Positions 12,891-30,822 of a stretch of DNA of 64,000 nt are shown here, one piece after another; positions within the stretch are counted from its first letter, which is position 1, and each line of letters starts with the position of its first letter. The notes below the pieces were generated by a model, which was given only the letters and a program-made list of their open reading frames with translations, did no database searches and was not told the origin of the DNA. The stretch lies in the IMG/VR virus record IMGVR_UViG_3300027896_004848; one strand, written 5' to 3'. Source of the DNA: an uncultured virus (IMG/VR IMGVR_UViG_3300027896_004848) (Duplodnaviria > Heunggongvirae > Uroviricota > Caudoviricetes). Both the position numbers and the translations under genes were made by a program.

Positions 12891-12924
12891 ATGTGGGCTT
12901 TGTGCTTTAGCGTAAGGCTCACAT
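12891..12924 (+). promoter_or_regulatory. Strong leader hairpin downstream of a sigma70-like promoter
   Basis: AATGTGGGCTT...AGGCTCACATT stem; TTTACA-17-TATAGT at about 12844-12872. Confidence 0.5.
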
Positions 12925-12984
12925 TGGGGGAGAGACAATCACGCTATCTAAAATACACTTTAAAAAATAATATAGGAGGAAAAA

Positions 12985-13665
12985 ATGAGAGTTGTGTTGT
13001 TGTTTTTGCTAATTGGAATTGTGTCTTGTAGTACTGCAAATCAGACTTTGAGTCCAGATGTTGTTTATATGGATGATATAGGTATTCAAGCAAACGGTTA
13101 TCAGGGAATAGGAATTCTTGCTTTACCTCAAGCATCTTCTTATGACATTAAACTTGATGCAGCTGGAAAGATAAATTTATTGGATTTTTCTAGTTGTCAC
13201 AGAACAATTATAAAACAGAAAAGTGGAAGTGGTAATATTTTTAATCCTGGGGACAAAATAGAAATAAATTATGTTCCTGCTGCGGGCATAGAAGACAATG
13301 GAAATTGTGATATAGATATAAGAACTTATAATATTCAATCTAAGAATAGTGTAGGTTATATTGTTTTTCAAAATCCAAAATACCAGCTTCCTGCTACTTT
13401 AAACTGTAATGGTTCAACTATTCAATCTCCGGGGGAATCAGTATGCTCAGCTAAACAAACTTTATATCAGACTATATCTTTTACTGTTCCTGTGAAGGTT
13501 ACTGATAAGGATGCTCAACTTTATAATCTAACAACTACAGATAATAAAGCGTTTAGATATCAGATGCCTCTTGGTACTCATAAAATAGAATTTATCGACC
13601 AAACAACTTTTAAACTTCATAGACTTGTTACTCGTGGTTTTCAACAGGCAAGGATTAATTTATAG
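12985..13665 (+). CDS. Lipoprotein of unknown function
   Basis: AGGAGG RBS, hydrophobic signal with IVSC lipobox, paired Cys. Confidence 0.65.
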   Translation: MRVVLLFLLIGIVSCSTANQTLSPDVVYMDDIGIQANGYQGIGILALPQASSYDIKLDAAGKINLLDFSSCHRTIIKQKSGSGNIFNPGDKIEINYVPAAGIEDNGNCDIDIRTYNIQSKNSVGYIVFQNPKYQLPATLNCNGSTIQSPGESVCSAKQTLYQTISFTVPVKVTDKDAQLYNLTTTDNKAFRYQMPLGTHKIEFIDQTTFKLHRLVTRGFQQARINL

Positions 13666-13673
13666 GGGGTTTT

Positions 13674-13982
13674 ATGAGTTCACTATTAGGAAATTTATTT
13701 GGAATTGGAATTAATGTAGCTGCTAAAGTAGGTGTATCAAGCGGCACAATCTGGTCTCTTGGAATAATGGTTTTTCTTAAAGTATTAGATCTAGTTATAG
13801 ATTGGAAAAACGCTTCTGATGCTCAGAAAAAAGCATATTTAGATCTTGTTATAGCTGCTCAGAATTTAGCTCCAATACCGGTGAGTATTATGCAAGATTC
13901 TGAGAGCACTTATAATCAGCTTATAAAAGAAGCTAAGGAAGCTCAGGCTGCCGCACAGGCTGCAGCAGCAAAGCCTAAATAG
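13674..13982 (+). CDS. Small membrane protein (holin-like candidate)
   Basis: One or two N-terminal TM segments, Ala/Lys-rich tail. Confidence 0.35.
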   Translation: MSSLLGNLFGIGINVAAKVGVSSGTIWSLGIMVFLKVLDLVIDWKNASDAQKKAYLDLVIAAQNLAPIPVSIMQDSESTYNQLIKEAKEAQAAAQAAAAKPK

Positions 13983-13995
13983 TTATAGGTGGCTC

Positions 13996-14203
13996 ACCGA
14001 CCTCCTAATGGCTGCTGCTGTTGGGTGATGGGTTAGAATGACTATTCCGTCGGTAATTGGTGGAAGTGCTCGCCAACTTTGGAAAAGCAGCTTGAGGCTG
14101 CCAGTAACATATTTTAGGTTGAAATGATATATACCTAATTTGATGTTGACCTAAATGTGGTTGAAGGTGATTTGGGGTTCGCACCTGAAATATAACCCCA
14201 CCA
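13996..14203 (+). ncRNA. Unassigned structured RNA upstream of tRNA-Gly
   Basis: GC-elevated gap with several helices containing G-U pairs on the + strand and a 3' H-type pseudoknot ending CCACCA. Confidence 0.55.
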
Positions 14204-14206
14204 TGT

Positions 14207-14281
14207 GCGGGAGTAGCTAAGTGGTATAGCTCAACGTTGCCAACGTTGAGGCCGTGGGTTCGAGCCCCATCTCCCGCTCCA
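14207..14281 (+). tRNA. tRNA-Gly(GCC)
   Basis: Acceptor GCGGGAG/CTCCCGC, anticodon arm CAACG-TTGCCAA-CGTTG, T loop TTCGAGC, encoded CCA. Confidence 0.97.
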
Positions 14282-14594
14282 TTTTTAGGAGAGATTATGC
14301 TTTCGGAAAAAGAAATGATAAATCAAATAGCAGACGCATTTACAAAATTAGAAGAAAAGGATGAGCGCGTATCTAAAATTTATAGTTCTAATTTAATAGA
14401 TAATATAATGGCAGCCGCTAAAAGCATAGATGCACTAGATATACCCTACAAGTTAGGTGACTGCAATATGGTATGGGGAGCTTATATAATTCCTGATGCC
14501 TCTGTTCCCAAGAATATTATTAGAGTACGTTCTGATTCTGGTTATTTCTTTGATTTTAAAATCAAAGAATCAGATTAAGAGGAGGTGAAATAAA

Positions 14595-14714
14595 ATGAAA
14601 AAATTACTTATTCTGATCTGCTTAGTTATTATGTTTGGGTGTATAACAACAGAGAAGCATGGTTATTTTTGGTGTGCCAAGAAAATACAAGGCACAAATA
14701 TACTCTGTCCCTAA
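14595..14714 (+). CDS. 39-aa lipoprotein (not in ORF track)
   Basis: AGGAGGTG RBS; MKKLLILICLVIMFGC lipobox then ITTEKHGYFWCAKKIQGTNILCP. Confidence 0.65.
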   Translation: MKKLLILICLVIMFGCITTEKHGYFWCAKKIQGTNILCP

Positions 14715-15904
14715 AAAAGGAGATATATATGGAAATAATTATTAAAGGAAAAAGAAGAGAAGGAAAAACAACAATAGCTGCATTATTATTTAATCTTTTT
14801 AAAGGAAATAATAATGTAGCTGTTCACGACAGTTGTGAGGAGAGTGATATTTATATTGGTGATGTTTCTATTCCTGAAAAAATTAAAAATAAAAACATTA
14901 TAATTACAACAATTGATGAAGACCAGCCCAACATTCCTGATTCTTCTACAAATTTTAAAAAATGGTTTGATACTTTTATGGATGAACCAAGAAAAACCAA
15001 TGCCTTTGCATATAGAGAAAAAGACCAAGAAGAATTTCAATTTGCCCAGAAAATTAAAGATACCATAATTTATAAAAAAATAGAATGTGGTAATATAAAA
15101 AAGTGTGAAGAAGGTTTTTATATTGAAAGCCTAGAACTTGAAAATGGTAAAAAATTAATTGCAGATAATAATAAAATTTTAATTTTGGAGGAATTATGAT
15201 GGATAAACTGAGAGTTTGAAGATGGTTACTATTCTGTTCAAATTTAAGGAGGATTTAATATGGCTAAAGAGTCATCGGTATACGGTAGTCCACCAGCAAT
15301 AAAAAAACTAATAAAGTTATATGCCTATATTGATGGTGATTTTAGATTGGCTTTTTCTCCTAAGCTTGAATCTGCTGAAAGGTATAATTCAAGGTATCCA
15401 AGTCTTGATACTGTGCAGGAAGTTGAAATGACAGATCCAGATTATGTCTACCCAAATGGAAGAAAACCAGATATTAAATATAGTATGATAATAAAGGTAA
15501 AATAAAAAATAAATTTGTCGAGGGAGGGTCTATCATGGAAACTCAGAAAATTTGTGAAAAAAAACTTAAATGGCCAATTAATACTATTTGGGAGAGGAAA
15601 TATAATATAACAAAAGGTTCGTTAGATATGAGTTATAGTTTAATACAAAATATTAAAGGAGATTGGCAAACTTCTTGGACGGGAGTAATAAGTTATCTTA
15701 CAGCGGAAAATGGCATTGCTTTTTCATTTGATAAAGTAAAAAATATATTTTTTGATTCTCCTAATTTATTTAAATTAATTAAAGATACGATAGAGGAAAA
15801 ACGATTAGAACAGATTTTACTAGAATTAGCTGAAGTAGAAAAAGAGAGTAATGAAAAAATAACTAAAGCTATGATAAGTATTGAAATAAAAGGAAGTACT
15901 ATAA

Positions 15905-16576
15905 ATGCTTAAGGTATATTGGTTCGGTTACGGCGGTCACAGCTGGATGGCTGAAAAGCTTCGTAATTTAATTGAAGATGAACTAGGTATGCAGCTAGTG
16001 ACTATTCATGAGCATCCTAATGCTGATGTCAAATGGAATTTAGAGACTGTATTTGAGGAATTAAAAAAAGCTGATATAATAATAGTCTCTGCAAATTATA
16101 AAAGACAGCCTTGTAAATCTAATAATAAACTCACACAAGCAATGGCTCTCGGTAAGCCTATAGTGTGCTCCCCACTTCCAGCTTATCAAGATATTGTAAA
16201 GCATGGCATAAATTCTTTTATATTATTAAACGACTCTGAAGAAGAATGGCGGAAGTACCTAACAATCCTACGAGATAATCCTGATGTTAGGCAGAAGATG
16301 GGCGTGGAGGCTTTAAAAACAGCTAGAAATTATACACAGGAAGTGGCAGCCGAAAGCTGGCTTAAAGCCCTATCACAAATAGAAAAGAAAGTAGATCCTA
16401 AGGCTATTGACGTGATAATACCCACAAAGGGTAATCCAGAGATTTTAGCAGAGTGTCTGAAATCTTTTGAAAACTCTAGTATGAAAGAAGATATTTATAT
16501 TATCGATAACGGTAATGACATCACCGAGGAATCTCTTAGTTATTTGAAAGTGCCTATTAAGATTGTGGAGGTATAA
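15905..16576 (+). CDS. C-terminal half of GT-B domain + start of a GT2 domain (split GT part 2)
   Basis: KVYWFGY, KSNNKLTQAMALGKPIV.S..PAY, then IDVIIPTKG...IYIIDNG. Confidence 0.85.
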   Translation: MLKVYWFGYGGHSWMAEKLRNLIEDELGMQLVTIHEHPNADVKWNLETVFEELKKADIIIVSANYKRQPCKSNNKLTQAMALGKPIVCSPLPAYQDIVKHGINSFILLNDSEEEWRKYLTILRDNPDVRQKMGVEALKTARNYTQEVAAESWLKALSQIEKKVDPKAIDVIIPTKGNPEILAECLKSFENSSMKEDIYIIDNGNDITEESLSYLKVPIKIVEV

Positions 16577-16577
16577 G

Positions 16578-16856
16578 ATGAGCTTTTTAGAAAAGGTAGC
16601 TAAGAAATTAAAAAAAGATAAAGTTGAAAAGGGGCAGGTACGCAACACTGTCTTACGAAAAATTAAAGAGCTAAAGCAGATAGCTAAAGTCTTAGAACAA
16701 TCTATTAAAATCAAAGAGGAAGAGTTACCAGAATATAAGGGTACTCCGAAAGCAAAACAGTTAAAAAAACAAATAAAAATAATGTTAAATGGGCTTATCT
16801 ATGTACAAGAGTCTATTAAACGGTTGGAAGGATATAGGGAAGTGACTACCTCATGA
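16578..16856 (+). CDS. Basic helical protein inserted within the GT2 domain
   Basis: GGAGGT RBS; MSFLEKVAKKL; stop overlaps next start (ATGA). Confidence 0.6.
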   Translation: MSFLEKVAKKLKKDKVEKGQVRNTVLRKIKELKQIAKVLEQSIKIKEEELPEYKGTPKAKQLKKQIKIMLNGLIYVQESIKRLEGYREVTTS

Positions 16857-18568
16857 TAAGGTCTATTACAATTTTAAAACCCAAAAAGTCTCTTAATTTC
16901 AGTGAAAGCTGTAACTTAGGTATAAAAAGTTCCAAGAACAAATATATATTTGTCGCAAATGATGATATTATCATAACGAAAAACAGTATTGAAGAGCTGG
17001 TCAAAAACACAGATGATGACACTATTACTGGGCCAGACTCTAACTGCAATCTAGGATTTCAGACTGATTATGCTTATACTGTAAAAGACGTTAAGCTTGT
17101 TCCTGCTATGACATTAGATCAGGTGAAGCACATAATACCCGATATCTATAATATAAAGCCAGTAAAACAGGATGTGCTAAAAAGAGACTGGCTGGCTTTT
17201 TTTGCTACAATGTTTACTAGGAAATGTTTTAATGATGTCGGTTTTATGGATGAAAGTTTTATCTATGATCGCGAAGATCTTGATTGGTGCATTGCGGCAA
17301 AGAAACTTGGGAAGAATTTTAAGCAGATTTTTGGGAGTTATTGTTTTCATTTTGGCGGGATATCCAGAAAAAGAAAGCATCAAGAATTGGGACTTAAGCA
17401 CGATTTAGATCAGGAGCATAACTATTTATATTACGCAAACAAGTATGGTATAAAAGACAAGCCTATTTTAGGCATATTTTGTAGTGACGCTTGGGAGCCT
17501 TGGGATGAAAATTCTTTGAATTCATCTGTTTCAAATAAGCCTAGCGGAATAGGCGGATCTGAGACACAGGTTATTTATTTATCACGGGAGTTTTCTAAAT
17601 TAGGATATAAGGTAAAGATATTTAATAAGTGTAAAGAACAGCATTTTGATAAGGGCTATGATGTGGAGTATATTCCTTTTCAAAATTTTGGAGAATATTC
17701 AAAGAAGTTGGAGTATGACTATTTTATAGCTAGTAGATATTTAGATTGTTTTGATATACCTTTTAAAAGTAAGCGTAATTTCGTGATGGCACACGATGTT
17801 TTTCTTATCATGAATGGAAAGCACCAACATGACGTAAAACAAGATAGGGTAGAAAAATACTTTTGTTTGAGTAATCGTCATAAGCAGTTTTTTAGTGAAT
17901 ATCATAATATTCCTATGGATAAGATATTGATGACATCCAACGGCTTAGATTTTTCAAGATTTGAAAATAAAAATATTAAAAAAGATCCTAATAGGCTTAT
18001 ATACAGCTCATCACCAGACAGGGGATTAGAGTACATGATGCCTGTACTAGATCAAGTCTACAAACAACATCCTCAAATGAGACTGCATGTCTATTATGGT
18101 TTTGAGAATTTCAGAGATCAGGATTATATTACAAAGATAAAAGCTGAAATGACTAAGAGGTCTTATATTACCTATCATGGCCGGGTTGGGCAGGATAGGC
18201 TAGCAGAAGAGTTTTTAAGAAGCGGTATTTGGAGTTACTTTTCTGGATTTAGTGAGACATTTTCAATTACGGCCCTTGAGGCCATGCAAAGCGGGGCATG
18301 CGTGCTTTCTTCTGCGTATTGGGGTTTGATTGACACGGTGGGCAATGCAGGTATTTTAATTGACTTACATGACAACTACAACAATATACACACAGATGCT
18401 TATAAAAATAAATGGAAAGAAGAATGTCTTAGATTGTTAAAAGATCAAAAATATGCTGATTCTTGGCGGGCTAAGGGCCTAGAAAGAGTCAAAAAATTTT
18501 CATGGACTGCTGTGACAGAACAATGGTCAGATCTGTTTTTAAAAGGCACATGGAAGGAAATCCAATAG
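16853..18568 (+). CDS. Remainder of GT2 domain + complete GT4-like domain (split GT part 3)
   Basis: NFSESCNLG, VANDD, EDLD, HFGG; then GIGGSE, YSSSPDRGL, ETFSITALEAM. Confidence 0.9.
   Translation: MIRSITILKPKKSLNFSESCNLGIKSSKNKYIFVANDDIIITKNSIEELVKNTDDDTITGPDSNCNLGFQTDYAYTVKDVKLVPAMTLDQVKHIIPDIYNIKPVKQDVLKRDWLAFFATMFTRKCFNDVGFMDESFIYDREDLDWCIAAKKLGKNFKQIFGSYCFHFGGISRKRKHQELGLKHDLDQEHNYLYYANKYGIKDKPILGIFCSDAWEPWDENSLNSSVSNKPSGIGGSETQVIYLSREFSKLGYKVKIFNKCKEQHFDKGYDVEYIPFQNFGEYSKKLEYDYFIASRYLDCFDIPFKSKRNFVMAHDVFLIMNGKHQHDVKQDRVEKYFCLSNRHKQFFSEYHNIPMDKILMTSNGLDFSRFENKNIKKDPNRLIYSSSPDRGLEYMMPVLDQVYKQHPQMRLHVYYGFENFRDQDYITKIKAEMTKRSYITYHGRVGQDRLAEEFLRSGIWSYFSGFSETFSITALEAMQSGACVLSSAYWGLIDTVGNAGILIDLHDNYNNIHTDAYKNKWKEECLRLLKDQKYADSWRAKGLERVKKFSWTAVTEQWSDLFLKGTWKEIQ
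18551..18564 (+). repeat. Putative attL core
   Basis: TGGAAGGAAATCCA encoding WKEIQ at the GT 3' end. Confidence 0.7.
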
Positions 18569-19635
18569 CCTATATAACTATTTGATTTGTTTAATTAAAA
18601 ACTCAAAATAGGGATAGAACAATGGCACCTTATCCCTACCGTTAGTATTTGAGTAAATTCTTTTAAATCTATATAATGCAGAGCGAGGTGAATTATGAAT
18701 TGGTTTAAAAAATTAAGAGCTACCATTGAAGAAGCACCTCTTTACCGTGAGCCTATTCTGCTTCTAACAGAAAAACAATATATTGATGTGTTAGAAAATT
18801 TTTACGGGAGAAAACTAACAAAAAAAGAATTACAAAAAGTCAGCATTAAAATTGAATATCAAATTAAAAAAGAAGATGAGAAATTTAAAGCAGCAATGAA
18901 TCCAAAAGGAGCCTTATGAAAAAGAAAATAGATAAAATAGAAAAAATGCCCTCATTATTAGACCGTCTGAATACTGTTGGGGTTAAACCCCTATAATTTT
19001 GTTAGATTAAAAGATAAGAGAAAAGGAGAATAAAATGGATGATGGTTGGGGTCATTGTGATAAGTGTAATGAAGGATTTACTAGTGACTATGAACTTCCA
19101 ACGGATAGCTATTTTGATGGGGGTTACTTTACACCTTTTAATAAAACTCTTTGTAAGAAATGCTATCCTAAAAATTGGAAAGAGCTACATGAAGAATATG
19201 ATAAATATCAAGATGAATTTAATAAAAGAGTAGAACAGAAATACAGGAATAGAATTGAAGAGCTGATTGGAAAATCTTTAGATGATGAAACCTTTAGATT
19301 TATTCGTGAAGGTCGTACAGCTTGCTATAACCAAATACAAAGAGAATTTCCTAATCCTTTTACTGAAAAAGAGCCAAATGAGGTTAATAATGAATAAAGA
19401 ATTGTTTGATAATTGGTTTGTTGAAAAATATGGTTTAAAATATGAAGAAATTTATGATGGATTCAAATTTAATAAAAACGATATGTTAAATATTTTTCAA
19501 ATTTGTGAAAAGCACTATAGATTAAAAATTATTGAAACTTTAGAATTATTAAATAACCCCTTAAATGATAATGGAGCAAGTTGTAGAACAACTATAACTA
19601 GAGCTATTAAAATATTAAAAGATTGAGGTATATAA

Positions 19636-19782
19636 ATGCTCATAGAATTAAATTGTCCTAAATGTGAAACAACTTTTGAAGCTAATCCTTTTAAAGTTGA
19701 ATATACCTGCTGTCCTAAATGTGATTTACCGTTCGAGTGGGAATGTTCAATGGAGAATTGGTGGGCTGAATGGGAACAGTAA
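19636..19782 (+). CDS. 48-aa Zn-ribbon protein (not in ORF track)
   Basis: GAGG RBS; CPKC...CPKC. Confidence 0.55.
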   Translation: MLIELNCPKCETTFEANPFKVEYTCCPKCDLPFEWECSMENWWAEWEQ

Positions 19783-20229
19783 GGCTATACCTTGAACTTT
19801 AATGAATTAAAAAAATCTGATAAGGAATATGACATTAAAGATTTAAATAATTCCGATGGATCACCGTTTATGGTAGATCGTTATATAGACCTAAAAAACA
19901 ACAGGTTTTATGAGTATAACAAAAAGACAAATGTTTATAGGGAGATTTTTGATTTAGGAACAGAAAAAAACCCTACGGATTGGATTAAAAATACATATAC
20001 CAAATGACTAAAAAGGGTTTATTTTATAAATTTATTAGAAAGCATTTTCCAACACTATTGGGGTTGGTAAATAAAAAAATATATAGAAAAAGACTTGCTG
20101 AAGAAAAGCAAAGAAAATTAGATCGCTGCACACACGCTGAAGCTTATGCTTTTGACGATGATGGTGGGGATTGGGTAGTGTATTATTGTCCTACCTGTAA
20201 AATAGAGTTTGGTAGCAACGGATCATGTA

Positions 20230-20643
20230 CTAGATAATAGATTGATAATTATACCCATGCTCCCAAAACTCTGATTTACCCATATCTGAAATAGGTGCTT
20301 TAAAGACTTCAAGATTCATTAGTCCTGGGATCTCCGACCTTCTAGGTTCATTGCTATGTCGAGATATTGCTTTCTTAAATGACTTTTCATTAAAATTCTT
20401 ATTCATTGCTCTACTAGATGTAGCCTTTAAAGAGGTAATAGCCCCCGTAATATTCACATTTATTTTATACTCTATTGTAAAAATCAATTTTTCTGCTTCA
20501 TAACTAAAATCCCCCACCCATATACCTAGTTTTGAAGCTGCTTTCTTAAAAGCACTTTCCAGAATACTTCTGTCGGGTATTTCAATCTTAGAAAAAGCTT
20601 TAAAGGTCACTTTGAGTTTAATTGATCCTTCTGGCCTTGCCAT
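20230..20643 (-). CDS. IS200/IS605 TnpA (Y1)-like protein lacking catalytic motifs
   Basis: LKATSSR and FWEHGY match the TnpA LKG.SSR and FW..GY motifs; no HUH and no C-terminal catalytic Tyr helix. Confidence 0.55.
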   Translation of the reverse strand: MARPEGSIKLKVTFKAFSKIEIPDRSILESAFKKAASKLGIWVGDFSYEAEKLIFTIEYKINVNITGAITSLKATSSRAMNKNFNEKSFKKAISRHSNEPRRSEIPGLMNLEVFKAPISDMGKSEFWEHGYNYQSII

Positions 20644-20779
20644 ATCTCACCTCTCTAACTCTTATTTTAGTCCAAAGTTAAGAGAATGTCGAGTAGATTC
20701 GTTGGGGATATAGCTAACTCATTGTATTTATTAGTATAGCACACCTTTTTTAAAAAATTAATTGAATGCCTAATAGAAC

Positions 20780-20807
20780 TTGACTTTTAGCGTCATTATG
20801 CTATAAT
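20780..20807 (+). promoter_or_regulatory. sigma70 promoter of the integrase
   Basis: TTGACT-16-TATAAT with extended -10 TG. Confidence 0.7.
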
Positions 20808-20826
20808 GAATAAATAGGGGGAAAAC

Positions 20827-22764
20827 ATGAAGGGATTATACGAAAGAAGAACCAAAACGGGTGAAAAAAGATATCGTGGAAAATATAATAGTAAACACAC
20901 ACCTTGGACTACTTATGAAGAAGCTTGTAGACTGTTAGCGATACTCCAGACAGAAGGTATCCAGCGTAGAAAATCAAGAAAAGAAAAAATAAAGCAATTA
21001 AAAGCAAATATAAAAGTTAAAAAAGGCATAGAAAGTTGGGTAAACTTTAGGGGAGAAACATTTTATAGGGCAAGAACTACTGTAAATAGAAAGGCTATAC
21101 AATCAGATTGGACAACTTCTTATGAAGAAGCCTGTAACCAATTAGAAAATGCAAAGTCTAAAAAAATCTATGCTTCTGAAAAACAAAAAGAAGCTATAAA
21201 ACAATTGGAACTTGATGAACAGAAATACTTAGAAAAGCATTCAGAACCTAAAGAACTTTTAAATATTCCTGTTGATGTAAACGGAAAAATAAAAGGTATT
21301 GAAGAAAGAACTACAAAACAGGGTGAAACTAAATATAGGGCAGCTACTTTTGTTAATGGAAAGCGTGTTAGAACAGCTTGGACTTCTTCTTATGAAGAAG
21401 CCTATAAACAATTTATTAAAATGAGTTCATTTAGAGTAGCTGTACCACATAAAAACAGATATACAGTAAATGATAAAGATATAAGAATGTCAGAATTTTT
21501 AGAGTTATACTTTGAGTATATAAAAACAAGATATAAACCAAACACTCAAAGAAATATACGCTCAGTATTAACTAAAATTTATAGGCATAAAATGGACATG
21601 CCTCTTAGTGAAATATCAAAAGTCGATGTAATGCCTCACCTAAGAGTTTTAGTAAAAAAGATATCAGCAGCTCGTAATATTTCGGTTTTAAAAATGTTAC
21701 AGGAATATGCTAAAGCTTTTGAATATCCTTACACAATAAATATTGCAAGATTGTGGGAAGAAATCCGCAACTATGCTGCATCTGATGAAAAAATAAAATT
21801 TATTTCAAAAGAAGAAGTAGCTGAAATTTTTAAGTATATAGATGATAGTATTGTAAAAATTAAAGCTAGAAAAAAGTTTACAATTCATGCTGAGAAAAGC
21901 ATTAAAGACTATCAGCATTTTAAATTGGCAATAAAGATAGCTTTATATGGGGGTCTGCGTAGAAGTGAAGTTTTGGGATTACGCTACAAAGATATTCAAT
22001 TAGATAAAAGAATTATTAATGTTATTTCAGTTCAAAATTTAGATGGCACATACAAAATTGGAACTAAAAATGGAAAGACCAGGATTGTTCCAATGGCAGA
22101 TCATGTAAAATTAGAACTACAAGAATTTATGAATAAAGATTACAAGGCAGACAGTTACATTTTTGAAGGATATAATTATCATTTTATTCAAGTCAGAATG
22201 GATGCTCTTAATGTAGCTGTAAAGTTTAGAGATACATATGGCTTCCATACTTTCAGACATACTTTTGCTAGTTTATTCTTTAAGTTAAAAGGCACATCTC
22301 CCGAAGCTCTTGTAGATTTACAACAGATATTAGGTCATCAGCATATCAATACAACTATGCACTATGTCCATGTTTATAAAACTTACACAGGAAATATTTT
22401 AGATGGTCTAAGCTATGGTGAAGCAGAAAAGATAGAAGCTCAGAGAAAAGAAGAAGAAAAAGAAACTCTCATTAGTGCAACAGTAGCTTTAAAAATATTA
22501 TCTGACCAAATCAGAGTTGAAACACCTTATGACAAGGATCTCATTCCTGTATATGAAGGAATGGGGGGAGTATTTAATAAAGAAAGTAGATGTTGGATAT
22601 TTGATTTAAGCACAGAGAAAAATATTAGGAATATTTTAAAAGAAAGATTTGGATATGAGCCTACTGAAACGATAGAAGATAAAATAAAAGAAATGCAAAA
22701 ACAGTTGGCGACTTTAATAAGTATTGCTCAATCTAATAATGGTTTGTCTAATAAAATATCATAG
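20827..22764 (+). CDS. Tyrosine integrase with three N-terminal arm-binding repeats and a C-terminal extra domain
   Basis: GLRRSE, TKNGK, HTFRH, LGH, TTMHY catalytic set; 3x KG..ER.TK.GE..YR...WT.SYEEA-like repeats. Confidence 0.92.
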   Translation: MKGLYERRTKTGEKRYRGKYNSKHTPWTTYEEACRLLAILQTEGIQRRKSRKEKIKQLKANIKVKKGIESWVNFRGETFYRARTTVNRKAIQSDWTTSYEEACNQLENAKSKKIYASEKQKEAIKQLELDEQKYLEKHSEPKELLNIPVDVNGKIKGIEERTTKQGETKYRAATFVNGKRVRTAWTSSYEEAYKQFIKMSSFRVAVPHKNRYTVNDKDIRMSEFLELYFEYIKTRYKPNTQRNIRSVLTKIYRHKMDMPLSEISKVDVMPHLRVLVKKISAARNISVLKMLQEYAKAFEYPYTINIARLWEEIRNYAASDEKIKFISKEEVAEIFKYIDDSIVKIKARKKFTIHAEKSIKDYQHFKLAIKIALYGGLRRSEVLGLRYKDIQLDKRIINVISVQNLDGTYKIGTKNGKTRIVPMADHVKLELQEFMNKDYKADSYIFEGYNYHFIQVRMDALNVAVKFRDTYGFHTFRHTFASLFFKLKGTSPEALVDLQQILGHQHINTTMHYVHVYKTYTGNILDGLSYGEAEKIEAQRKEEEKETLISATVALKILSDQIRVETPYDKDLIPVYEGMGGVFNKESRCWIFDLSTEKNIRNILKERFGYEPTETIEDKIKEMQKQLATLISIAQSNNGLSNKIS

Positions 22765-23160
22765 GAGGTATTATGAAAACAATAAGGGTATTTTTTAAAT
22801 GGTTTCGTTCATTAAAGGAAAAATGCAATTCCAAAGTCTATAAGAGAGGTAAGGTGATTTTCTTAACTGATAGTATACCTTCTGAAAAAATAGAAGAATT
22901 TGTTATTTCTGTCCGTAAAGATAGTGGTCAGCGTGTAGATTGGCATTATATGGGTGGCCGTGCAGTTATTAAATATTTGGGTGATAAAAATAAAGTAATA
23001 GAATCTCTTAAAAAATTTAGAAACATTCATGATGAAGCCTATGAAAAAATGATGATAGAGTCCCCTGTGCCCACTACAAAAGAATATATTACCAAAAGAA
23101 TTAATGGATATTGGGATATGCTGAAATAGAATTTTGGAGATAATAAAAAAACTTGACATA

Positions 23161-23225
23161 ATACCCCCGATGCGTTTCAATAATTCATGTAGGTTTATAT
23201 AAATTAGAAACATATCGGGGGGTAT
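23161..23225. promoter_or_regulatory. Long inverted repeat over the parA promoter region and RBS
   Basis: ATACCCCCGATGCGTTTC...GAAACATATCGGGGGGTAT, just after TTGACA at 23153. Confidence 0.6.
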
Positions 23226-23230
23226 CGTTC

Positions 23231-24196
23231 ATGCAAGTCGCTATATCATCCACAGAAATAGGGAGTATTTTAGATATTACTCCACAAGGACTAGCTCAAT
23301 ACATTAGAGGTCTGGAATTAGATAAGGAAAAAGAAGAGTTTTTTGGGGGTAAAACAAGGTATCTTACACACGCAGGAGCTAGAAAACTTTTTACTGCCAG
23401 AGGTTTTAAATACCCAAAAAAGAATATTTGTTTTTATGCTAATAAAGGTGGCGTTGGAAAAACAACCTTAGCTATTAATATGGCTTATAGGGCTGCACAA
23501 TTAGGCGCAAGGGTATTACTTTTTGACCTAGATATGCAAGCCAATGCTACTAATACCTTTATAAGTCATATCCCAAAGCATGTTTTTTATGATGTTATTA
23601 CTAAGAATACAACCGTTGATAAAGTGATAATTCCATTAGATAATGGTTTAGATATTCTTCCAAGCTCTCTTACAAATACTCGCCTAGAGCTTGAATTAAT
23701 TACAAAACAATTCAACCAAGAAAGCTATTTTAAAAGCATCTTAGAACCAATCAGAGATAACTATGACTTGGTAATTATTGATTTGGCTCCAAGTCTTTCC
23801 CATGCTTCTTATTTGGCAGTTCTGGCTTCGGATCTCGTCTATATCCCTGCAACACCAGATATCTATTCAGCACAAGGAATTGATATAACCTGGGGAACAA
23901 TACAGGATATTGAAAAGAATTTTCCAAACAAGAAATTTGAAGTCAATGTTGTGTGGAATAAGTATAACAGTAAAGAAACAAACTCTCTTAAATTTATTAC
24001 TGACATGAAGAAATATGAGGGTATGGGAATAGCCCCTGTTATTATTAGAGTAGATGCTGCTTTAAAGAATGCTCAAGCTGAAGGAAAAACAACCTTTGAG
24101 TTTAAGAGCAAAGGCAATTCTCTTGAGGATATTGATGTATTGACTAAAGACATGCTTGGTATTGATTCTTTCTTTAATAAGAAGGCAAATGCATGA
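23231..24196 (+). CDS. parA: ParA ATPase with N-terminal HTH
   Basis: KGGVGKTT, DLDMQANAT, IIDLAP; N-terminal HTH extension. Confidence 0.9.
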   Translation: MQVAISSTEIGSILDITPQGLAQYIRGLELDKEKEEFFGGKTRYLTHAGARKLFTARGFKYPKKNICFYANKGGVGKTTLAINMAYRAAQLGARVLLFDLDMQANATNTFISHIPKHVFYDVITKNTTVDKVIIPLDNGLDILPSSLTNTRLELELITKQFNQESYFKSILEPIRDNYDLVIIDLAPSLSHASYLAVLASDLVYIPATPDIYSAQGIDITWGTIQDIEKNFPNKKFEVNVVWNKYNSKETNSLKFITDMKKYEGMGIAPVIIRVDAALKNAQAEGKTTFEFKSKGNSLEDIDVLTKDMLGIDSFFNKKANA

Positions 24197-25299
24197 ATAA
24201 GAGTAAAACGCTTTGCCTTGCTGATTTAATGAAGAAAGAAACTAAAGGCATAAACCCTATGAAACATAGAGAAGGTTTGGATAAACCTAGTTCTTCTTTT
24301 TTATTCAAGGATAAACAGGTAACAAACGGGCAACAAACAGATAACAATATAGATAGCAATCAGATAACAAACGGGCAACAAACAGATAACAATGAAAACT
24401 TGGAAAAAGAGAAACAGATAACACAAGGGATAACCATTAGGCAACAAACAGATAACAAACGGATAACAGATTTTAAGGTAGACGCACTTGTTGGGCATGA
24501 GAAAAAATTACTTTTTTTTATTAAAGAAAAATGCAGTTTAATAGGTGATTTAATCACGCCTCCAATTACAAATGAGCTAACAAGAGAAGCCTTAGAGTGT
24601 AGTATGGATACAGCTAAGATGATTGTTTATAGGTTAGTAAAAAAGGGTTTTATTAAAAGACATTCCAGCAAAACAGGTCGAGGTGGCTGGACTAGATTCT
24701 CTATATCAAAAGATTTATACCAAACCTTAAACAGGCAACAAACGGATAACAAACAGGGTACACAAGGGATAACACAAGGGATAACAAGCCCCTCTAGTAG
24801 TAGTAGTCTTAATATATTAAATAATACTACTACTGAAGGATGGTCTGAAATAGATATTGCCCCTCTTGAACAATTTGGCTTTACTGACACCCATATTAAA
24901 CAAATAATCAGTTCCAATAAGAGCAACCCTACACTTTTACAAAAGTCTATTGAGTATTTTGTTTATATGCTGGAAAACAAAACTCAAGATATCAGAGAAC
25001 CTATAGGATTTTTTATGTCTATTATGAGAAATGAAGGCATGATAGCGAAGCCATTAGGCTATAAAACCAAACTTGAAAGAAATCTTGAGATTCTTGATCA
25101 AGAAAGAAAAGCTGAACAGGATAAAGTTAAAAAATATATTGAAGAAAATTATGAAACTTTAACAAGGCATCCTAGTATAATAGCAGAGAAGGAAAAATTA
25201 TCTCAAAATGGGTTTATGTCGGAAGACTCCAGGGCATATTTGGAAACCATGAAAGGGATACTGTTTGATAGGATACAAAAAGGCGAATTACAAGCGTAG
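24193..25299 (+). CDS. Replication initiator-like (wHTH) protein with intragenic iterons
   Basis: Central wHTH (AKMIVYRLVKKGFIKR...GRGGW) flanked by QQTDN repeats, SSSSS linker, coupled to parA. Confidence 0.7.
   Translation: MNKSKTLCLADLMKKETKGINPMKHREGLDKPSSSFLFKDKQVTNGQQTDNNIDSNQITNGQQTDNNENLEKEKQITQGITIRQQTDNKRITDFKVDALVGHEKKLLFFIKEKCSLIGDLITPPITNELTREALECSMDTAKMIVYRLVKKGFIKRHSSKTGRGGWTRFSISKDLYQTLNRQQTDNKQGTQGITQGITSPSSSSSLNILNNTTTEGWSEIDIAPLEQFGFTDTHIKQIISSNKSNPTLLQKSIEYFVYMLENKTQDIREPIGFFMSIMRNEGMIAKPLGYKTKLERNLEILDQERKAEQDKVKKYIEENYETLTRHPSIIAEKEKLSQNGFMSEDSRAYLETMKGILFDRIQKGELQA
24311..24787 (+). repeat. Iteron-like 11-bp repeats in two clusters
   Basis: G(G/A)(C/T)AACAAAC(A/G) units; 29-mer duplicated at 24320-24348 and 24365-24393; second cluster about 24730-24787. 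Confidence 0.75.
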
Positions 25300-25371
25300 G
25301 GATAGCTTCTCCTATCCCCAACAAGTATATAAGTCGTTGAAACTATTTATTATTTTGGTCACAATGTGACT

Positions 25372-25385
25372 TGGAAGGAAATCCA
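25372..25385 (+). repeat. Putative attR core
   Basis: Identical 14-mer, followed by GTGA overlap into the next gene. Confidence 0.7.
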
Positions 25386-28200
25386 GTGAAAACACAACTA
25401 TCTATTCCTATAGAACAAATTTTAATGTCCTCTAAAAGTCCAAAACAATTCATAAAACAAAAAATTAAATCATTTTTTAAAAATGATAAAAAAATTTATA
25501 AGCGTCTTAAAATGGAAAGTATAGAATTCTCTTATTATGAAGATACCTCAGTTTATTATAATATAGTATATACAGGAGATCCTATAGCCATGAGGTGTAT
25601 GAGTAAGATTCTACACTTCTGGGGCAGATGCTCCAGCTCCCAAGAGTTAGGTAAGCTATGAAAGCTACCTTGGGCAAAAGAACGAAAAATGGACGGAAAT
25701 TCAATAAGGAGATTTTATGAAATTAATAATATCTTTAGATAAAGCTCTTGTTCTTGATTTAATTTGTCTTTTTGAGCAAGCTTTAGACGCAACAGAACCA
25801 CTTGGAAAATTAAGAACTAAAAAGTCTTTATTTCATGATAAAGTCATGAAAGAAGTTATTGATAAATTAGAACTTAAAGATTGGTCTAAAAAAATAATAG
25901 AAATTGCAAAATCTTTTGATTTAGAAATTGTTGAATAAACTTTTGAAGAAGGCTATGATAAAAAATTTTATGACGTATATTTATCCTTACTTTAAAAAAG
26001 TTCCCAAGAATATTGAAGTATTAGATCCACTTAATCATCCTAAACATAAATTAATGGGTAAATCTGAATTGATTTGGGCGAGTTCTGATTGGGTTTGTTT
26101 TGGACAACATTATATTGAAAATCATGTTCGTAAATGTGTAGATAATTCTGTATACAGCATGACTTATAGTACATTTTGGAGATATGTTAGAGAAGGAAAA
26201 ATAAAAGTTTTAAAGTCGCCGTGTTTAAAAAAATTTGATAAAGAAATACAGGAGATGCTTAAATGAGTTGGGTAGAAACTAAATTAAAAGCAGCTATAGA
26301 TGGTTTTATTGCGTGACACAACCTATTTTAAAACGGGGTATGGAAAGAAATTCAGTGAGGTAATTATGAAAAAAGAAGAATTTTCTTATTATAAGGTAGT
26401 TTGGGAAAAAGATATTGTAACTTATGAACGAATAGATAATGTACATCGACCTGAAAATGTTGCTGGGATAATTTTGCGTGAACAAGAAACTGAGAGATCC
26501 CATATAAACTGTTGCTCTGAAAAAAAATTAAAATCATTTAATTTAATTTCTAAACAAGAATTTTATTCCAGTCATAAATGAGGAGATTTTATGGATTTAA
26601 AAGACGATATACTAAATTTAAAAATAATTAAAGATCGCTGTAGGGCTATAAGGATGGACAAATATTCTTGTTCTGTATGTTCTTTTTATATAGATGAATA
26701 TGTAAATCCTGGGGATGTACAAGCTAAAGAAAAAGATTGTTTATTAGGCCGTCCTTGTGGGTGGAATGAATATACAAGTTTAACAATAAAAAAGGAAGAT
26801 AGAAAATTGGGAGCAGTGGCTCCTGTGCCCAGACCCCCAGTAAGCGTGTGAAATAATGAGAGAATATGTCAATCCAAGAGGTTGGAAGGAGATACAATGA
26901 GTGAATTAGGTAAATATATGTATAATAAATACCATGACGATGAAGATGATACTGATGAAACCAATATAGAAGAAGTTTTAAATTTAGAAATAAAATATAC
27001 TGAGACAATGAAAAAAGAAATAGAAAATTTAATAGACGAAATTAATAATAAATCTATAAAACTTTTTTATATTTTAGCAGATGATAAAATGAATAAATGT
27101 GGTCATTCAGGAACTAAAGGTCTTGGGGGAAACGATTCATCACCTTGGGATGGCACTAAAGCAACATTAGAAAGTACTTTAGAAACACTTAAGATATGTT
27201 TAGAAAGATATGAGGTTTTAGTTACTTCTGTCCCCAAGGACTAGGTAAGTTGTGAAAAGTATTATGTTATCTAGGCTTTACTTCCAAGAAGGCCCTAGCG
27301 CCATTGACAAGAAGGGTCTTAAGTATTATAAGGTATTTTTAGTTTTAATGAGGTGTTTATGACATTAGAAAACGCTATGGAAAGTAATGCTAAGTTGGCT
27401 GAAGTTATTGCCCAAAAGAAAAGGGATGCTCTTGTACCCTGTGAGTCACGTTTGTCATTTTTGGGTGCTGTACCAACTACTGAAAAAAAGGATTCTGATC
27501 TTGGTAAAACTATCGTTTTGGCTATTCTTGCTATAGGGACTGTAGTAGCAGGAGGTAGATATATACAAAATAAAGTCAGGGAAAACAGAGCTTCGAAGTA
27601 TGCTCGTAGGTTAGCATATAAAAAATACGGCTATGATGTCTCGAATGAAGAAGCTTCCGAAGCAGGAATAGGATTAAATAAGCATAAAAGCAGGCTTTAA
27701 AAAGTTATTGACAACACTAAATGAGGTGCTTATGATAAAAATAAGTAAAAAGGATCTTAATAAATTGGTTTCTGAAAAAATATTTGGCTGTTCTGATCAA
27801 CCTGCTGATTATTGTGGTAATATTTTGGAAGCTAGAAAAATTCTTACAAAAATAAGACAAACTCAGGCAAATTTAAATTATAATAAAGCTGTTGGACAAC
27901 CGATTCCAATTCAAATTTGTTTAGCTGCATTATTTATAGTTACGGGCAATGAATACGATGTTGAGGAACTATAGTCATGAATAAAAAAGAAAAACTAAGA
28001 GGACAGACAAAAGAGTTTTGTCATTTTGATGAAAGCGCATTTGAAGATCGGTCTATTAAATTTGGAGTATCCGGCTATGAAAAGCCTATATTGGAATTAA
28101 AAGCTAACGGTGATATTTTTGTAAAAGGTAAGGCAGTAGTAAATGATATAGAAGTCTATTGGGCTTTAAAAGAATTTCTTTTAAAAGCAAAGGAAGAATT

Positions 28201-28413
28201 ATGAAAAATGATATTTTAGAAAAATTAGCCGAAATAGAACACGACCAGTGGGTAGAATGGTCAAAAGATGTAGCCAATAAAGAAAATATAAGTGAAGAAC
28301 GTAAGAAGCGTTGGAAACAGTATTGGATTCCTTATTCTGAATTATCAGAAGATGTGAAAGAACAAGATAGAAAGTATGCTAGGAAGGTTTTGAAGGCATT
28401 AGCTGGTAAATAA
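28201..28413 (+). CDS. RyR-like small domain protein
   Basis: LAEIEHDQW...PYSELSEDVKEQDR pattern. Confidence 0.55.
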   Translation: MKNDILEKLAEIEHDQWVEWSKDVANKENISEERKKRWKQYWIPYSELSEDVKEQDRKYARKVLKALAGK

Positions 28414-28940
28414 ATAGCTAGGAACGGTTGAAAACATTAGAACAATATAAGTCAAATGAATAACCAATCAGATTATTTAAAATATAGAGGTAAATGTAAA
28501 GAGCTGTGTGAAGGGCTTATTAAAAAAGATAGTTCTTTAAGATTAGTACGTGGTTATTATTATTGTCCAATGTGGGGTGAGCAGCCCCATTGGTGGTGTG
28601 AAAATAAAAATAAAAAGATAATAGATCCTACTAGATTACAATTTCCTTCAAAGGGTTTGGGAGAATATATAGAATTCAACGGTATGCTTCAGTGTGCTGA
28701 GTGTGGTAAAGAAGTTGCGGAGAAAGATGCAGATATAGCTGGCAATTATGCTTTTTGTTCATACAACTGTCATGGTAAGTTTGTGGGGATATTTTAATGA
28801 CTGCTAAAGGGTTAATAGAGTATGCTAATAAAAACTAAGACAGTAGAACTAAAAAAACAAGGTAATATATTAACACCTAAATAATTTAATATTATCAAAT
28901 ATTTTAATAGTATTATGTATACTTTAAACAAGGGGGAATC

Positions 28941-29312
28941 ATGACAAATTATGGTAAAGAATTGATATTAGATTTACATGAGTGTGATCCAAGCACTTTT
29001 ACAAGAGCCAGCATAGAAGAATACTTTGTACAGATGTGCAAGAAGATTGATATGAAGCGCTGTGATCTTTTCTTTTGGGACGACTTTGGACTACCGCCAG
29101 AAGAATGCCAGACTTTGCCTCATTTAAAAGGGACTTCTGCTGTACAGTTTATAATGACTTCAAATATCACAATACACACTTTGGATATCATGAAGCGGGT
29201 ATACTTGAATATCTTCTCATGTAAAGATTTTGACCCTAAAGTAGCTGAAGGATTTTCTCTTGAGTGGTTTAAGGGAAAGACTGTAAACAAAGTAATCGTA
29301 GACAGGATATAA
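28941..29312 (+). CDS. speD: Pyruvoyl-dependent AdoMet decarboxylase-like proenzyme
   Basis: G..LILDL..C, GTSAVQFIMTSNITIHT, LNIFSCK.FD. Confidence 0.8.
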   Translation: MTNYGKELILDLHECDPSTFTRASIEEYFVQMCKKIDMKRCDLFFWDDFGLPPEECQTLPHLKGTSAVQFIMTSNITIHTLDIMKRVYLNIFSCKDFDPKVAEGFSLEWFKGKTVNKVIVDRI

Positions 29313-29314
29313 TA

Positions 29315-30304
29315 ATGAATATTGTGTTTATAATACCAACTGGGATTGGTGCTGATATAGGTGGTCATGCAGGAGATGCTACTCCAGCAGCAAAATTAAT
29401 AGCCTCTTGTTGTGACAATTTAATTATACACCCTAACGTAGTCAACGCTTCTGATATAAATGAGATGTCTGAAAATATGTGGTATACTGAAGGAAGTATT
29501 TTAAATAGATTTTTGACCGGATCTATAAAGCTACAAAGGCCACACAAAAATAAAATACTTTTAGCAGTCAATAAACCTGTATGGATAGAGACTATAAATT
29601 CAGCATCCTCTGCAAGAGCAACTGTTGGGGCTGATATTTCTATATTAGAGTTAAATGAGCCTTTAGAAATGATAGCAACAATGGAAGATGGAAAGGCTTC
29701 GGGAATAGTAAATGGTTGGGAAAGCCTAGTAAAGCAGGTATCTGATTATTCTTTTGACGCACTAGCTCTTGCTACACCCATAGATGTCGATAAAGAAGTT
29801 GCATTAAAATATATGCATGATGGTGGTGTAAATCCTTGGGGTGGTGTAGAGGCAAAAGCTTCTAAACTGATTGCTAGTGCAATCAATAAGCCTGTAGCAC
29901 ATGCACCTGTAGGACATACACTTAAAGATTGGAAAGAGATAGCAGATCCTAGAATGGCAGCTGAGACTGTATCTGTATGTTATTTGCATTGTGTACTTAG
30001 AGGCCTTCACCGGGCTCCTAGAATAGAACCAAAAGAAGGTAATAAAGGACTATCTTATGAAGATATAGATTGTCTGATATCACCGTGGGGATGCTGGGGA
30101 GAACCACATGAAGCTTGTTATAATAGAGGCATACCTGTAATAGCTGTAAAAGAAAATAAGACCTGTCTGAATGAGCCTATGACAAAAGCGATTGCTGTAG
30201 AAAATTATCTGGAAGCTGCTGGTTTGGTCATGTCTTGGAAGGCTGGGGTAAGTATGGAATCTCTAAGAAGACCGTTAGCTCATACAACTGTTATAAAAGC
30301 TTAA
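29315..30304 (+). CDS. DUF3326 family protein
   Basis: IIPTGIGADIGGHAGDA, HPNVVNA, NPWGGVEA, AHAP, L.GL.RAP, NYLEAAG. Confidence 0.8.
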   Translation: MNIVFIIPTGIGADIGGHAGDATPAAKLIASCCDNLIIHPNVVNASDINEMSENMWYTEGSILNRFLTGSIKLQRPHKNKILLAVNKPVWIETINSASSARATVGADISILELNEPLEMIATMEDGKASGIVNGWESLVKQVSDYSFDALALATPIDVDKEVALKYMHDGGVNPWGGVEAKASKLIASAINKPVAHAPVGHTLKDWKEIADPRMAAETVSVCYLHCVLRGLHRAPRIEPKEGNKGLSYEDIDCLISPWGCWGEPHEACYNRGIPVIAVKENKTCLNEPMTKAIAVENYLEAAGLVMSWKAGVSMESLRRPLAHTTVIKA

Positions 30305-30322
30305 AGAGTTTATGGAGAAATT

Positions 30323-30820: not shown

Positions 30821-30822
30821 TG

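Follow-up and report, generated by a model that had tools for sequence, protein, structure and literature searches.

A candidate plasmid-derived element with a tyrosine recombinase and a ParA-type module in a large uncultured phage, at the end of a glycosyltransferase gene

The DNA analyzed here is a stretch of 64,000 nucleotides (the window) from an uncultured virus of the Caudoviricetes, IMG/VR record IMGVR_UViG_3300027896_004848. At 18551–25385 a block of genes is bordered by two copies of a 14-bp direct repeat, one of which coincides with the end of a glycosyltransferase gene. A preliminary description, made from the letters alone, had viewed the block as an excisable, replicon-like element. 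The genes and sites on which the argument turns are given below in window coordinates, with the strand in parentheses.

16853–18568 (+): target gene, a phage glycosyltransferase of 571 aa (Pfam Glycos_transf_1, E 2.8e-9); the left repeat copy coincides with its last five codons (W-K-E-I-Q)
18551–18564 (+): left core copy (putative attL), TGGA-AGGAAA-TCCA; the ATAG 3' of it completes Gln and supplies the stop
18565–25371 (+): body of the block, between the two core copies
20827–22764 (+): tyrosine recombinase, 645 aa (PF00589, E 7e-20; phrog_1, E 1e-41)
23231–24196 (+): ParA ATPase, 321 aa, type-Ia-like (AAA_31, E 1.4e-40; phrog_164, E 1e-50)
24193–25299 (+): protein X, 368 aa; start and parA stop overlap in ATGA; no match among Pfam and NCBIfam families
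25372–25385 (+): right core copy (putative attR), holding AAGGA 6 nt before the GTG at 25386
25386–25661 (+): downstream phage open reading frame (ORF), 91 aa from GTG, no family; its ribosome-binding site lies inside the right core copy

The word TGGAAGGAAATCCA occurs at 18551–18564 and at 25372–25385, with a spacing of 6821 bp, and these are the only two matches in the window at up to 1 mismatch. The preliminary description had placed the left copy at the WKEIQ end of the transferase; word search and the end of the ORF (...TWKEIQ, TAG) confirm this. The C-terminus ...WxEIQ is found in 29 homologs (46–76% identity), and alignment of the 30 sequences shows no exception at Q571 and at least 90% conservation at W567, E569 and I570. 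Since this conserved C-terminus is what the left copy codes for, the right copy, which lies outside any such gene, is a stray duplicate of the gene end. It sits in an 86-bp gap 3' of the X gene, the last of the block, and is followed by GTGA, in which GTG may plausibly serve as the start codon of the next ORF. The bases found 3' of each copy complete Gln and a stop codon, as CAA TAG on the left and CAG TGA on the right. Removal of 18565–25385 in silico yields ...ATC CAG TGA, the stop of which overlaps the GTG at 25386, exactly as had been claimed; four-base overlaps of the same style were found elsewhere at 16853/16856, 20004/20007, 24193/24196, 43010/43013 and 52573/52576.

The core word is a 4-6-4 dyad (TGGA AGGAAA TCCA), and judged from its letters the arrangement is that of a tyrosine-recombinase core. 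In the attP of a predicted circular form the arms would lengthen to TTGGA/TCCAA. Were the block excised, the joints would read ...GGCACA-core-GTGAAAAC... at attB (18564 to 25386) and ...GTGACT-core-ATAGCC... at attP (25371 to 18565). Direct repeats, one of them in the end of the target gene, thus mark both borders, as in site-specific elements, and taken together these marks point to a site-specific insertion which left the 3' end of its target gene undisrupted.

Between the two copies lies a tyrosine recombinase which had been called intact, and which the profile match and a complete set of catalytic boxes bear out as such. The PF00589 match covers residues 360–518 (E 7.2e-20, 71.9 bits against a cut-off of 27.1), and the motifs GLRRSE, HTFRHT, GHQH and MHYVH were read as the Arg, His-x-x-Arg, His and Tyr boxes. 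H474, R477, H478, H504 and Y513 are invariant among 5 aligned sequences; their catalytic roles are presumably those denoted by the box I/II motifs of the family. Three tandem repeats at the N-terminus are followed by core-binding and catalytic domains, and the protein ends in a conserved extension of ~110 aa. The family is rare. When residues 215–645 were compared with 5.8 billion clusters, 5 homologs were found besides the protein itself (47, 35, 34, 28 and 31% identity). In phage records the recombinase comes closest to integrases of Streptococcus satellite phages (~27% identity), and no match in plasmid records exceeds 28% identity. The N-terminal repeats (20827–21486) measure ~70–90 aa each and share the motif G-E-x-x-Y-R ... 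W-T-x-x-Y-E-E-A; one or three copies occur among the homologs, and the domain is not recognized by Pfam. An ORF fragment that terminates a related phage contig (L027, 1–237, minus strand) shares 42% identity with residues 154–231.

The repeat may be viewed as a coincidence, and the block as an ordinary accessory region gained through illegitimate recombination and not mobile in a site-specific manner at these borders. Exact direct repeats are frequent in the A+T-rich window, which holds 87 maximal pairs of at least 14 bp, and the region round the transferase cluster is variable, as it carries 3.1 kb and a 97-aa ORF more than 13/13 relatives (see below). Because 14-bp pairs are common, the weight of the repeat lies in its placement, the conserved target end, the preserved gene ends and the dyad; a shuffle expectation of 0.02 concerns the word TGGAAGGAAATCCA only. 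Given 87 pairs, an estimated 0.04 would combine a copy in the 86-bp gap with a partner at most 10 kb upstream of the integrase. Coincidence would also have to explain why the right copy repeats the conserved last five codons with Gln and stop kept, why the word is a 4-6-4 dyad, and why an intact integrase lies between the copies. We regard it as quite improbable. A longer similarity of the borders, TATATAAcTatTTGA / TATATAAgTcgTTGA (12/15), was set aside as within chance by estimate.

The phage that hosts the block encodes, in the window, large terminase, portal, head protease, sliding clamp, clamp loader and primase; terminase, portal and protease occupy the region 47400–63203. The nearest match of the terminase (ORF 47400–50492) resides, at 36% identity, in an uncultured phage of 485 kb; a phage of 309 kb is matched as well. 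The phage contig carrying the glycosyltransferase of the window measures at least 108,969 bp. The phage is large; the label 'jumbo' (at least 200 kb), used in the preliminary description, is unproven. Terminase profiles cover only residues 520–917 of the 1030-aa ORF 47400–50492, and residues ~100–545 match phage genes annotated as helicase or RecA, so that the ORF may be a fusion, or the carrier of an inserted domain.

The relatives of the phage that were compared in their gene context are distant; closer transferase homologs (P0032–P0062, 57–76% identity) are encoded by contigs of up to 95 kb. The nearest IMG/VR record measures 70 kb, with 42% estimated completeness. Megablast of 12000–32000 against INPHARED gave no match, and single-protein scans of IMG/VR, with the transferase and with the integrase, found no relative. 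Terminase relatives in IMG/VR (L020 and L021, 62–63% identity) are contigs which end short of the transferase region. A scan of IMG/VR with the transferase alignment identified 13 relatives carrying the transferase cluster (28–48% identity, contigs up to 424 kb). The three transferase ORFs are contiguous in 13/13, and none of the 13 has integrase, ParA or X within 10 kb. Five related large-phage records (70–424 kb, one 98% complete) were searched whole, and X, PF00589 and PF13614 were each found in 0/5.

Relatives of the block reside elsewhere. In a contig from another sample (L004) the C-terminus of the integrase, ParA and the start of X are found in the same order, at 70–81% nucleotide identity, without the ORF 22773–23129; in a second contig from that sample (L005) the end of X gives way to unrelated sequence. 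Runs X2 and X3, from two other studies, contain 5–7% of the sampled words of 17500–26500. Among the longest X2/X3 contig pieces, which are those listed, 15/16 fall inside the block (19399–25141, ~87–99% identity), and the remaining piece, of 129 nt and 88% identical, falls in the transferase; poor cover of parts of the flanks by these runs is no evidence of absence. The tetranucleotide distance of the block from the rest of the window is 0.174, a value reached by only 2/115 sliding windows of the same size. A comparison of integrase, ParA and the putative Rep (here X) with plasmids and phages had been proposed; for X, it found homologs on 108 plasmid records, and none in IMG/VR by a scan derived from the X alignment. 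Together with the repeat at the borders, the intact integrase and the plasmid-type ParA module, these observations make the block look like a foreign element, inserted site-specifically.

Several observations weigh against an inserted, mobile element. Besides the 87 repeat pairs, by which a 14-mer repeat is unremarkable alone, they include the motif TAA(C/G)TNNTTG, which had been proposed as an arm-type site: it is present at 18575, 20715 and 25330, yet is not enriched (11 against 9.7 expected). The G+C content of the block (0.29–0.35) is the same as that of the phage. No excisionase family and no recognizable replication initiator were found in the block by Pfam and PHROGs (and NCBIfam for Rep), and no DnaA-box-like site is present in it, which counts also against an initiator role of X. 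The core 14-mer occurs in 0/93 loci retrieved, the related pieces L004 and L005 included, which gives no sign that the att site is conserved; an exact 24-nt attR pattern had 0 matches in IMG/VR. No empty site was found among the 13 relatives, which are distant (28–48%) and feature no synteny downstream of the transferase. A change of coverage over 18565–25385, which had been suggested as a check, was not observed in the Logan contigs of run X1, the likely source, where depth is flat (14–20 outside, 16–22 inside the block). Neither the 18564-to-25386 joint nor a circle joint is among the joints listed for the Logan contigs of X1–X3. Joints 18545 to 20250 and 17980 to 25700 were disregarded, their sides (27 and 20 nt) being below the reliability bar. 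The element, if excising, is not visibly so in the X1 sample. The absence of the core from related loci and the chance level of the arm motif would fit a coincidental repeat as well.

Contigs of X1 cross both junctions with 0 differences (17058–18622 and 25131–27273) and at similar depth; X1 may be the same data from which the record was assembled, and such contigs drop rare variants. The crossings speak against an assembly chimera, in which a phage contig and a plasmid-like contig sharing the 14-mer would have been joined. The record does come from a metagenome, but a 14-mer is shorter than usual assembly k-mers and lends the idea no real support, and we consider a chimera hardly credible.

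Flat depth, the missing excision products, the G+C content equal to that of the phage and the lack of Rep and Xis in the block would all suit a different history, in which the block is the maintenance module of the phage itself, domesticated as in a P1-like phage-plasmid. ParA and X would partition a plasmid prophage, the recombinase would act as a dimer resolvase or cyclization enzyme, the repeat would be an old scar or due to chance, and the block would be immobile. Structural genes (terminase, portal, protease) and plasmid maintenance genes (ParA and X) do coexist on one molecule in the window, and a serine resolvase is found upstream of ParA and X in L007–L010 and L012, which indicates that a neighbouring recombinase can have a resolution function. 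Phage-plasmids that carry partition genes as part of the phage are a known class (PMC7969092, PMC10879196). An exact repeat that duplicates the conserved target end, with both gene ends kept, is nevertheless such as a recent site-specific insertion would leave, and integrase, ParA and X are missing from the five related large-phage records. Moreover, relatives of the block reside in other samples in which none of the listed contig pieces is a good match of the phage flanks, and the recombinase, with its three N-terminal repeat domains, groups with phage integrases (phrog_1). We hold immobile domestication to be unlikely as an account of the block as it stands; insertion and domestication are compatible as successive stages.

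An integrated plasmid-derived element, the reading we prefer, is fairly probable, and draws much of its character from ParA and X. The features of the module that are discussed next are:

23153–23225 (+): region 5' of parA, with TTGACA and the inverted repeat ATACCCCCGAT (23161–23171) / ATCGGGGGGTAT (~23214–23225)
24313–24468 (+): array 1, ~14 units of 11 bp (AAACAGATAAC / AACAAACRGRY), detected by TRF inside the X gene, read in three frames
24729–24786 (+): array 2, same 11-bp unit as array 1, downstream of the part encoding the winged helix
24796–24834 (+): inverted repeat (AGT)4, 18-nt A+T spacer, (ACT)3, encoding SSSS...TTT
25299–25319 (+): stem-loop GGGATAG-CTTCTC-CTATCCC, just 3' of the X stop; a similar stem lies at 18610–18638, near the left end (z −2.2 and −1.3)

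The GGGATAG stems were considered as end signals of the block and discarded, as the window has 7 copies of the word where 5.1 are expected, which is no enrichment.

The assignment of ParA, previously described as an HTH-ParA, holds for the ATPase (AAA_31) and not for the HTH, since Pfam finds none in the N-terminal extension. This extension, of ~60 aa, is common to 6/10 aligned ParAs. The match with ParA_partition NF041546 (E 8e-26) is below the cut-off of that model. The inverted repeat located 5' of parA comes just after the TTGACA, and may be the operator of the N-terminally extended ParA.

Protein X is modeled as a winged helix (residues ~95–187) and a helical C-terminal domain, with disordered stretches at 1–93 and 185–216; pLDDT is >90 for residues 100–180 and <50 for the two stretches. 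The N-terminus is basic (MxKxK), ahead of the disordered tail. Homologs detected by tblastn on the 108 plasmid records reside in Piscirickettsia (91), Legionella (12), Bdellovibrio (4) and Cardinium (1). A large protein collection yielded 30 homologs, the best of which (62–65% identity; P0001 and P0002) are encoded by contigs of 3.5 and 6.4 kb; a third contig with a related element, encoding P0152, measures 24.5 kb. Profile search extends the family to 2050 representatives at E <=1e-3 and 821 at E <=1e-30. Sixteen X loci were identified in JGI metagenomes, and three in GTDB genomes, all Bdellovibrionales metagenome-assembled genomes; an IMG/VR scan with a pattern derived from the X alignment found no relative of X. 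ParA is encoded directly upstream of X in 19/19 loci with upstream sequence; the other 4 loci begin at or within X. Neighbours of X include serine resolvase, relaxase, TraG-type coupling protein, toxin-antitoxin pairs and insertion sequence (IS) elements. Compared with ParABS systems, a Walker-type ParA is present, and so is an array of repeated sites at the operon, as a putative centromere; X has no ParB/Srx N-terminal domain, as it matches no family of Pfam or NCBIfam, and would be an adaptor at best rather than a member of the ParB family.

Seven copies of the strict unit AACAAACRGRY are found in the window (0.24 expected), always in the X gene and on the same strand, and the arrays encode precisely the disordered parts of X. 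Three units (33 bp) correspond to 11 codons, and yield a peptide repeat, ITNGQQTDNKx, across the X family. All three frames are used to read the units, so that it is the DNA rather than the protein which is periodic. In 7/13 other loci, encoding proteins ~37–44% identical, the same 11-mer is repeated 4–10 times, only within the X gene and in all three frames. The unit differs by subfamily of X (AAACAGATAGC, AAACAGGTAGC, AAACCTACAAC), and is replaced by a GGAAC-based 45-bp unit in P. salmonis. By this comparison of loci, the repeats are to be viewed as DNA-level features which co-vary across the X family. In the Cardinium plasmid p_A (L003, 2220–2554) the entire array, 13.5 copies of a 12-bp unit, lies upstream of parA. 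In pLPL (L001, 12–121 and 1707–1729) repeats of the TAGATATC type are found upstream of parA, and a related TTAGATAACAAC doublet inside the X homolog. The position of the array appears to have moved within the family. AGT runs are found in 8/9 other loci in which a Ser run was detected, and exact inverted repeats of 9–12 nt in three of them (L005, L015, L017). A 22-nt doubled-repeat pattern retrieved 53 contigs from IMG/VR (L041–L093), of which 0/53 encode X or ParA and 2 carry a 28%-identical integrase fragment; they were judged to hold unrelated tandem repeats.

X is quite probably the centromere-binding partner of ParA. This view rests on the universal, translationally coupled place of X behind parA, on short repeats in large number and in helical phase, of the kind present in R1 parC, on the array found upstream of parA in one member, and on the basic N-terminus that precedes the disordered tail. 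In R1 parC, a Type Ib/II partition locus, ten 11-bp repeats are bound by ParR, and the likeness is that an ATPase shares its operon with a small DNA-binding adaptor, and that direct repeats of ~11 bp form arrays. The array of Cardinium p_A, upstream of parA, resembles those of classical Type Ib/II loci. The adaptor would here be a winged-helix protein of 370–450 aa rather than an RHH protein, and the arrays reside mostly inside its own gene.

Alternatively, X may be a replication initiator, alone or in addition, an assignment which we make tentatively. It is suggested by the presence, in the gene, of repeats and of an A+T-rich palindrome, as in pSK41 Rep and lambda O; in the lambda origin, initiator-binding repeats are located inside the initiator gene. 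Leads from a protein atlas (HTH_36, RepA_N and RP-C clusters, scores 0.92–0.95) point the same way, as does the lack of an annotated Rep on two complete X-bearing plasmids, Cardinium p_A and Bdellovibrio pBdHAGR2. A published account of P. salmonis LF-89 states that no replication initiator could be named for three of its four plasmids (PMC6963756), which may favour the same view if those plasmids are among the ones that bear X. For pSK41 Rep (RepA_N), an origin of four Rep boxes is described, central in the rep gene and encoding a dispensable linker (PMC5703833). The likeness is in a winged-helix protein whose repeats, located in its own gene, encode a disordered linker, with an A+T-rich palindrome adjoining the repeats of X; X differs in the number and length of its repeats (14+5 units of 11 bp, where pSK41 has about four longer boxes), in being always coupled to ParA and in matching no Rep family of Pfam.

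Against the initiator, no Rep family profile (Rep_3, RepA_N, RP-C, Phage_rep_O) matched X in Pfam, PHROGs or NCBIfam. Of the traits of iteron-type origins, the X gene features repeats and an 18-nt A+T spacer within the palindrome, and the block no DnaA box. Fold searches do not separate Rep from adaptor, as whole X retrieved only generic winged-helix proteins (MarR/ArsR, Z 9–9.6; TubR, Z 8.0), and Foldseek found DnaD-N and the pNOB8 centromere-binding protein at E ~0.014–0.02. The model of the C-terminal domain (pLDDT 86) was uninformative (best Z 5.5, best Foldseek E 2.2). Of the 'initiator with iterons' of the preliminary description, the repeats stand as real 11-bp arrays; the initiator role stays tentative, as no Rep profile was matched and a centromere fits at least as well. 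Because no initiator has been identified, the term 'replicon-like', and with it episomal persistence, is not established.

The rest of the block, and a site before the integrase gene, are as follows:

18695–18919, 19035–19397, 19282–19626, 19636–19782, 19792–20007 and 20004–20237 (+): six small ORFs, several with CxxC pairs, no family
20230–20643 (−): TnpA-like ORF, 137 aa (Y1_Tnp, E 9.8e-5, 22.9 bits against a cut-off of 23)
20780–20807 (+): promoter-like site (sigma-70-like) before the integrase, TTGACT-16-TATAAT (11/12, with TG), the best score in 16000–28000, by consensus match only
22773–23129 (+): ORF of 118 aa, no family, missing from the related element L004

The six small ORFs gave no Pfam or PHROG match above noise, and have no homologs in 23 X-family loci; a contig of run X2 covers 19399–19561, within their region. 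ORFs 19035–19397 and 19282–19626 overlap by 116 nt in different frames, and one of the two may be spurious, or the pair may be read via a frameshift. The 137-aa ORF had been called a dead TnpA. A likeness to IS200/IS605 TnpA persists, at sub-threshold level; membership in the Y1 HUH group does not, as profile thresholds are not reached (21.5 bits against a cut-off of 55 for the IS200 NCBIfam model NF033573), the His-x-His motif is missing, and the only two His residues reside in SRHSN and WEHGY. Comparison with PDB sequences gave no TnpA match. A dead TnpA is possible, if weakly based.

The absence of capsid, terminase and conjugation genes from the block, already noted, was confirmed by Pfam and PHROGs, which detected no primase, Rep, terS, capsid-remodelling or other packaging family either. 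Of the gene set of phage satellites (PICI/P4/PLE-like) an integrase is thus present, and replication and helper-redirecting genes were not found. The earlier view of an excisable plasmid- or satellite-like parasite is supported as regards a probable inserted element with a plasmid-type ParA module, and not as regards a satellite.

The transferase region differs from that of relatives also outside the block. Homologs of 11133–12758 and 15905–16576 adjoin in 13/13 IMG/VR relatives, and 12759–15904 of the window are 3.1 kb of extra DNA, which hold ORFs 12985–13665, 14639–15199, 15260–15505 and 15535–15912, and a tRNA-Gly(GCC) at 14207–14281. This segment looks like a second insertion in the transferase gene cluster. 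A lysine-rich ORF of 97 aa (16563–16856), also extra relative to 13/13 relatives, lies between the two parts of a GT2 domain: positions 2–48 of the Pfam profile close ORF 15905–16576, and positions 57–107 open ORF 16853–18568. Whole GT2 and GT1 domains reside in one protein in more distant homologs of 753–790 aa (P0067–P0076). Intein domains (PF14528, PF14890) or an HNH domain (PF13392) are found in transferase homologs P0046, P0054, P0057, P0066, P0112 and P0142. The transferase gene seems to be a recurrent landing place of selfish elements.

On the reading that we prefer, a plasmid-derived element of ~6.8 kb would have been inserted into the last codons of the conserved transferase gene by its own tyrosine recombinase, at a crossover core, TGGA-AGGAAA-TCCA, made of two 4-bp inverted arms and a 6-bp spacer. 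The element would bring its own copy of the target end, by which the transferase would keep its ...WKEIQ-stop at attL, and the next phage gene would keep the AAGGA ribosome-binding site and the GTG start at attR. The cargo would be a plasmid maintenance module, made by a type-Ia-like ParA and the translationally coupled winged-helix X, whose cognate 11-bp arrays would lie in its own gene and encode disordered linkers. With such a module the circle formed by excision, or else the entire phage genome, would be passed on stably as the host divides, and in the integrated state the element would travel in the phage capsid. The agency of the recombinase in this insertion, continuing excision, the binding of X to the repeats and to ParA, and any episomal phase are inferred.

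A bolder version of this scheme is doubtful. In it, a plasmid-like element would use a large, otherwise integrase-free phage as its 'chromosome', being packaged and injected with it; it would then excise as a ParA-segregated episome, or keep the whole phage genome as a partitioned plasmid, and X would found a large family of proteins with the centromere or origin written in their own gene, across three reading frames. If true, plasmid-type elements may hitch-hike in phages usually deemed strictly lytic, or give them a plasmid-like persistence; in the case of whole-genome partition, a single integration event would turn a lytic phage into a phage-plasmid. This would bear on the origin of phage-plasmids and on gene flow between plasmids and phages. 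The ParA-coupled X, for which Pfam has no model, represents a sizeable family on plasmids of Legionella, Piscirickettsia, Bdellovibrio and Cardinium, and the embedded, co-varying 11-bp arrays provide a testable hypothesis for the maintenance of X-bearing plasmids.

Known systems resemble the block in part. In P1-type phage-plasmids, a tyrosine recombinase and a ParA-type partition locus likewise reside on a phage genome. In P1 itself, Cre/lox, ParA/ParB and RepA are scattered core phage genes with no flanking repeat; the block is a single bracketed cassette, in which no Rep was found and in which the partner of ParA has no ParB domain. Integrase and a ParA-type ATPase are found together on one integrative element also in the PAPI-1 / ICEclc family, where ParA/Soj is needed to maintain the excised circle. 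Those are 100-kb conjugative islands which reside in chromosomal tRNA genes, whereas the block measures 6.8 kb, resides in a phage gene and has no transfer genes.

Islands transduced by jumbo phages lie next to tmRNA in the bacterial chromosome, and not in the phage (PMC12595487). A limited literature search, which is no proof of absence, found no report of an integrase-plus-ParA cassette site-specifically inserted in a gene of a large phage. A close parallel is provided by helper-embedded PICIs (HE-PICIs), satellites integrated in late genes of a helper prophage (Tommasini, Mageeney and Williams 2023, PMC10111431). They bear an integrase and no virion genes, occupy an att-flanked site in a phage gene and are carried with the phage, as the block would be. 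HE-PICIs reside in lambda-like prophages of bacterial chromosomes, interrupt late genes until excision, and carry AlpA, replication genes and captured late genes; the block, in which no PICI-type replication or packaging genes were found, resides in a large phage whose reachable relatives are integrase-free, leaves its target undamaged and carries a ParA module. Satellites inside prophages are documented, and an integrase-plus-partition cassette set cleanly in a gene of a large environmental phage would differ from them.

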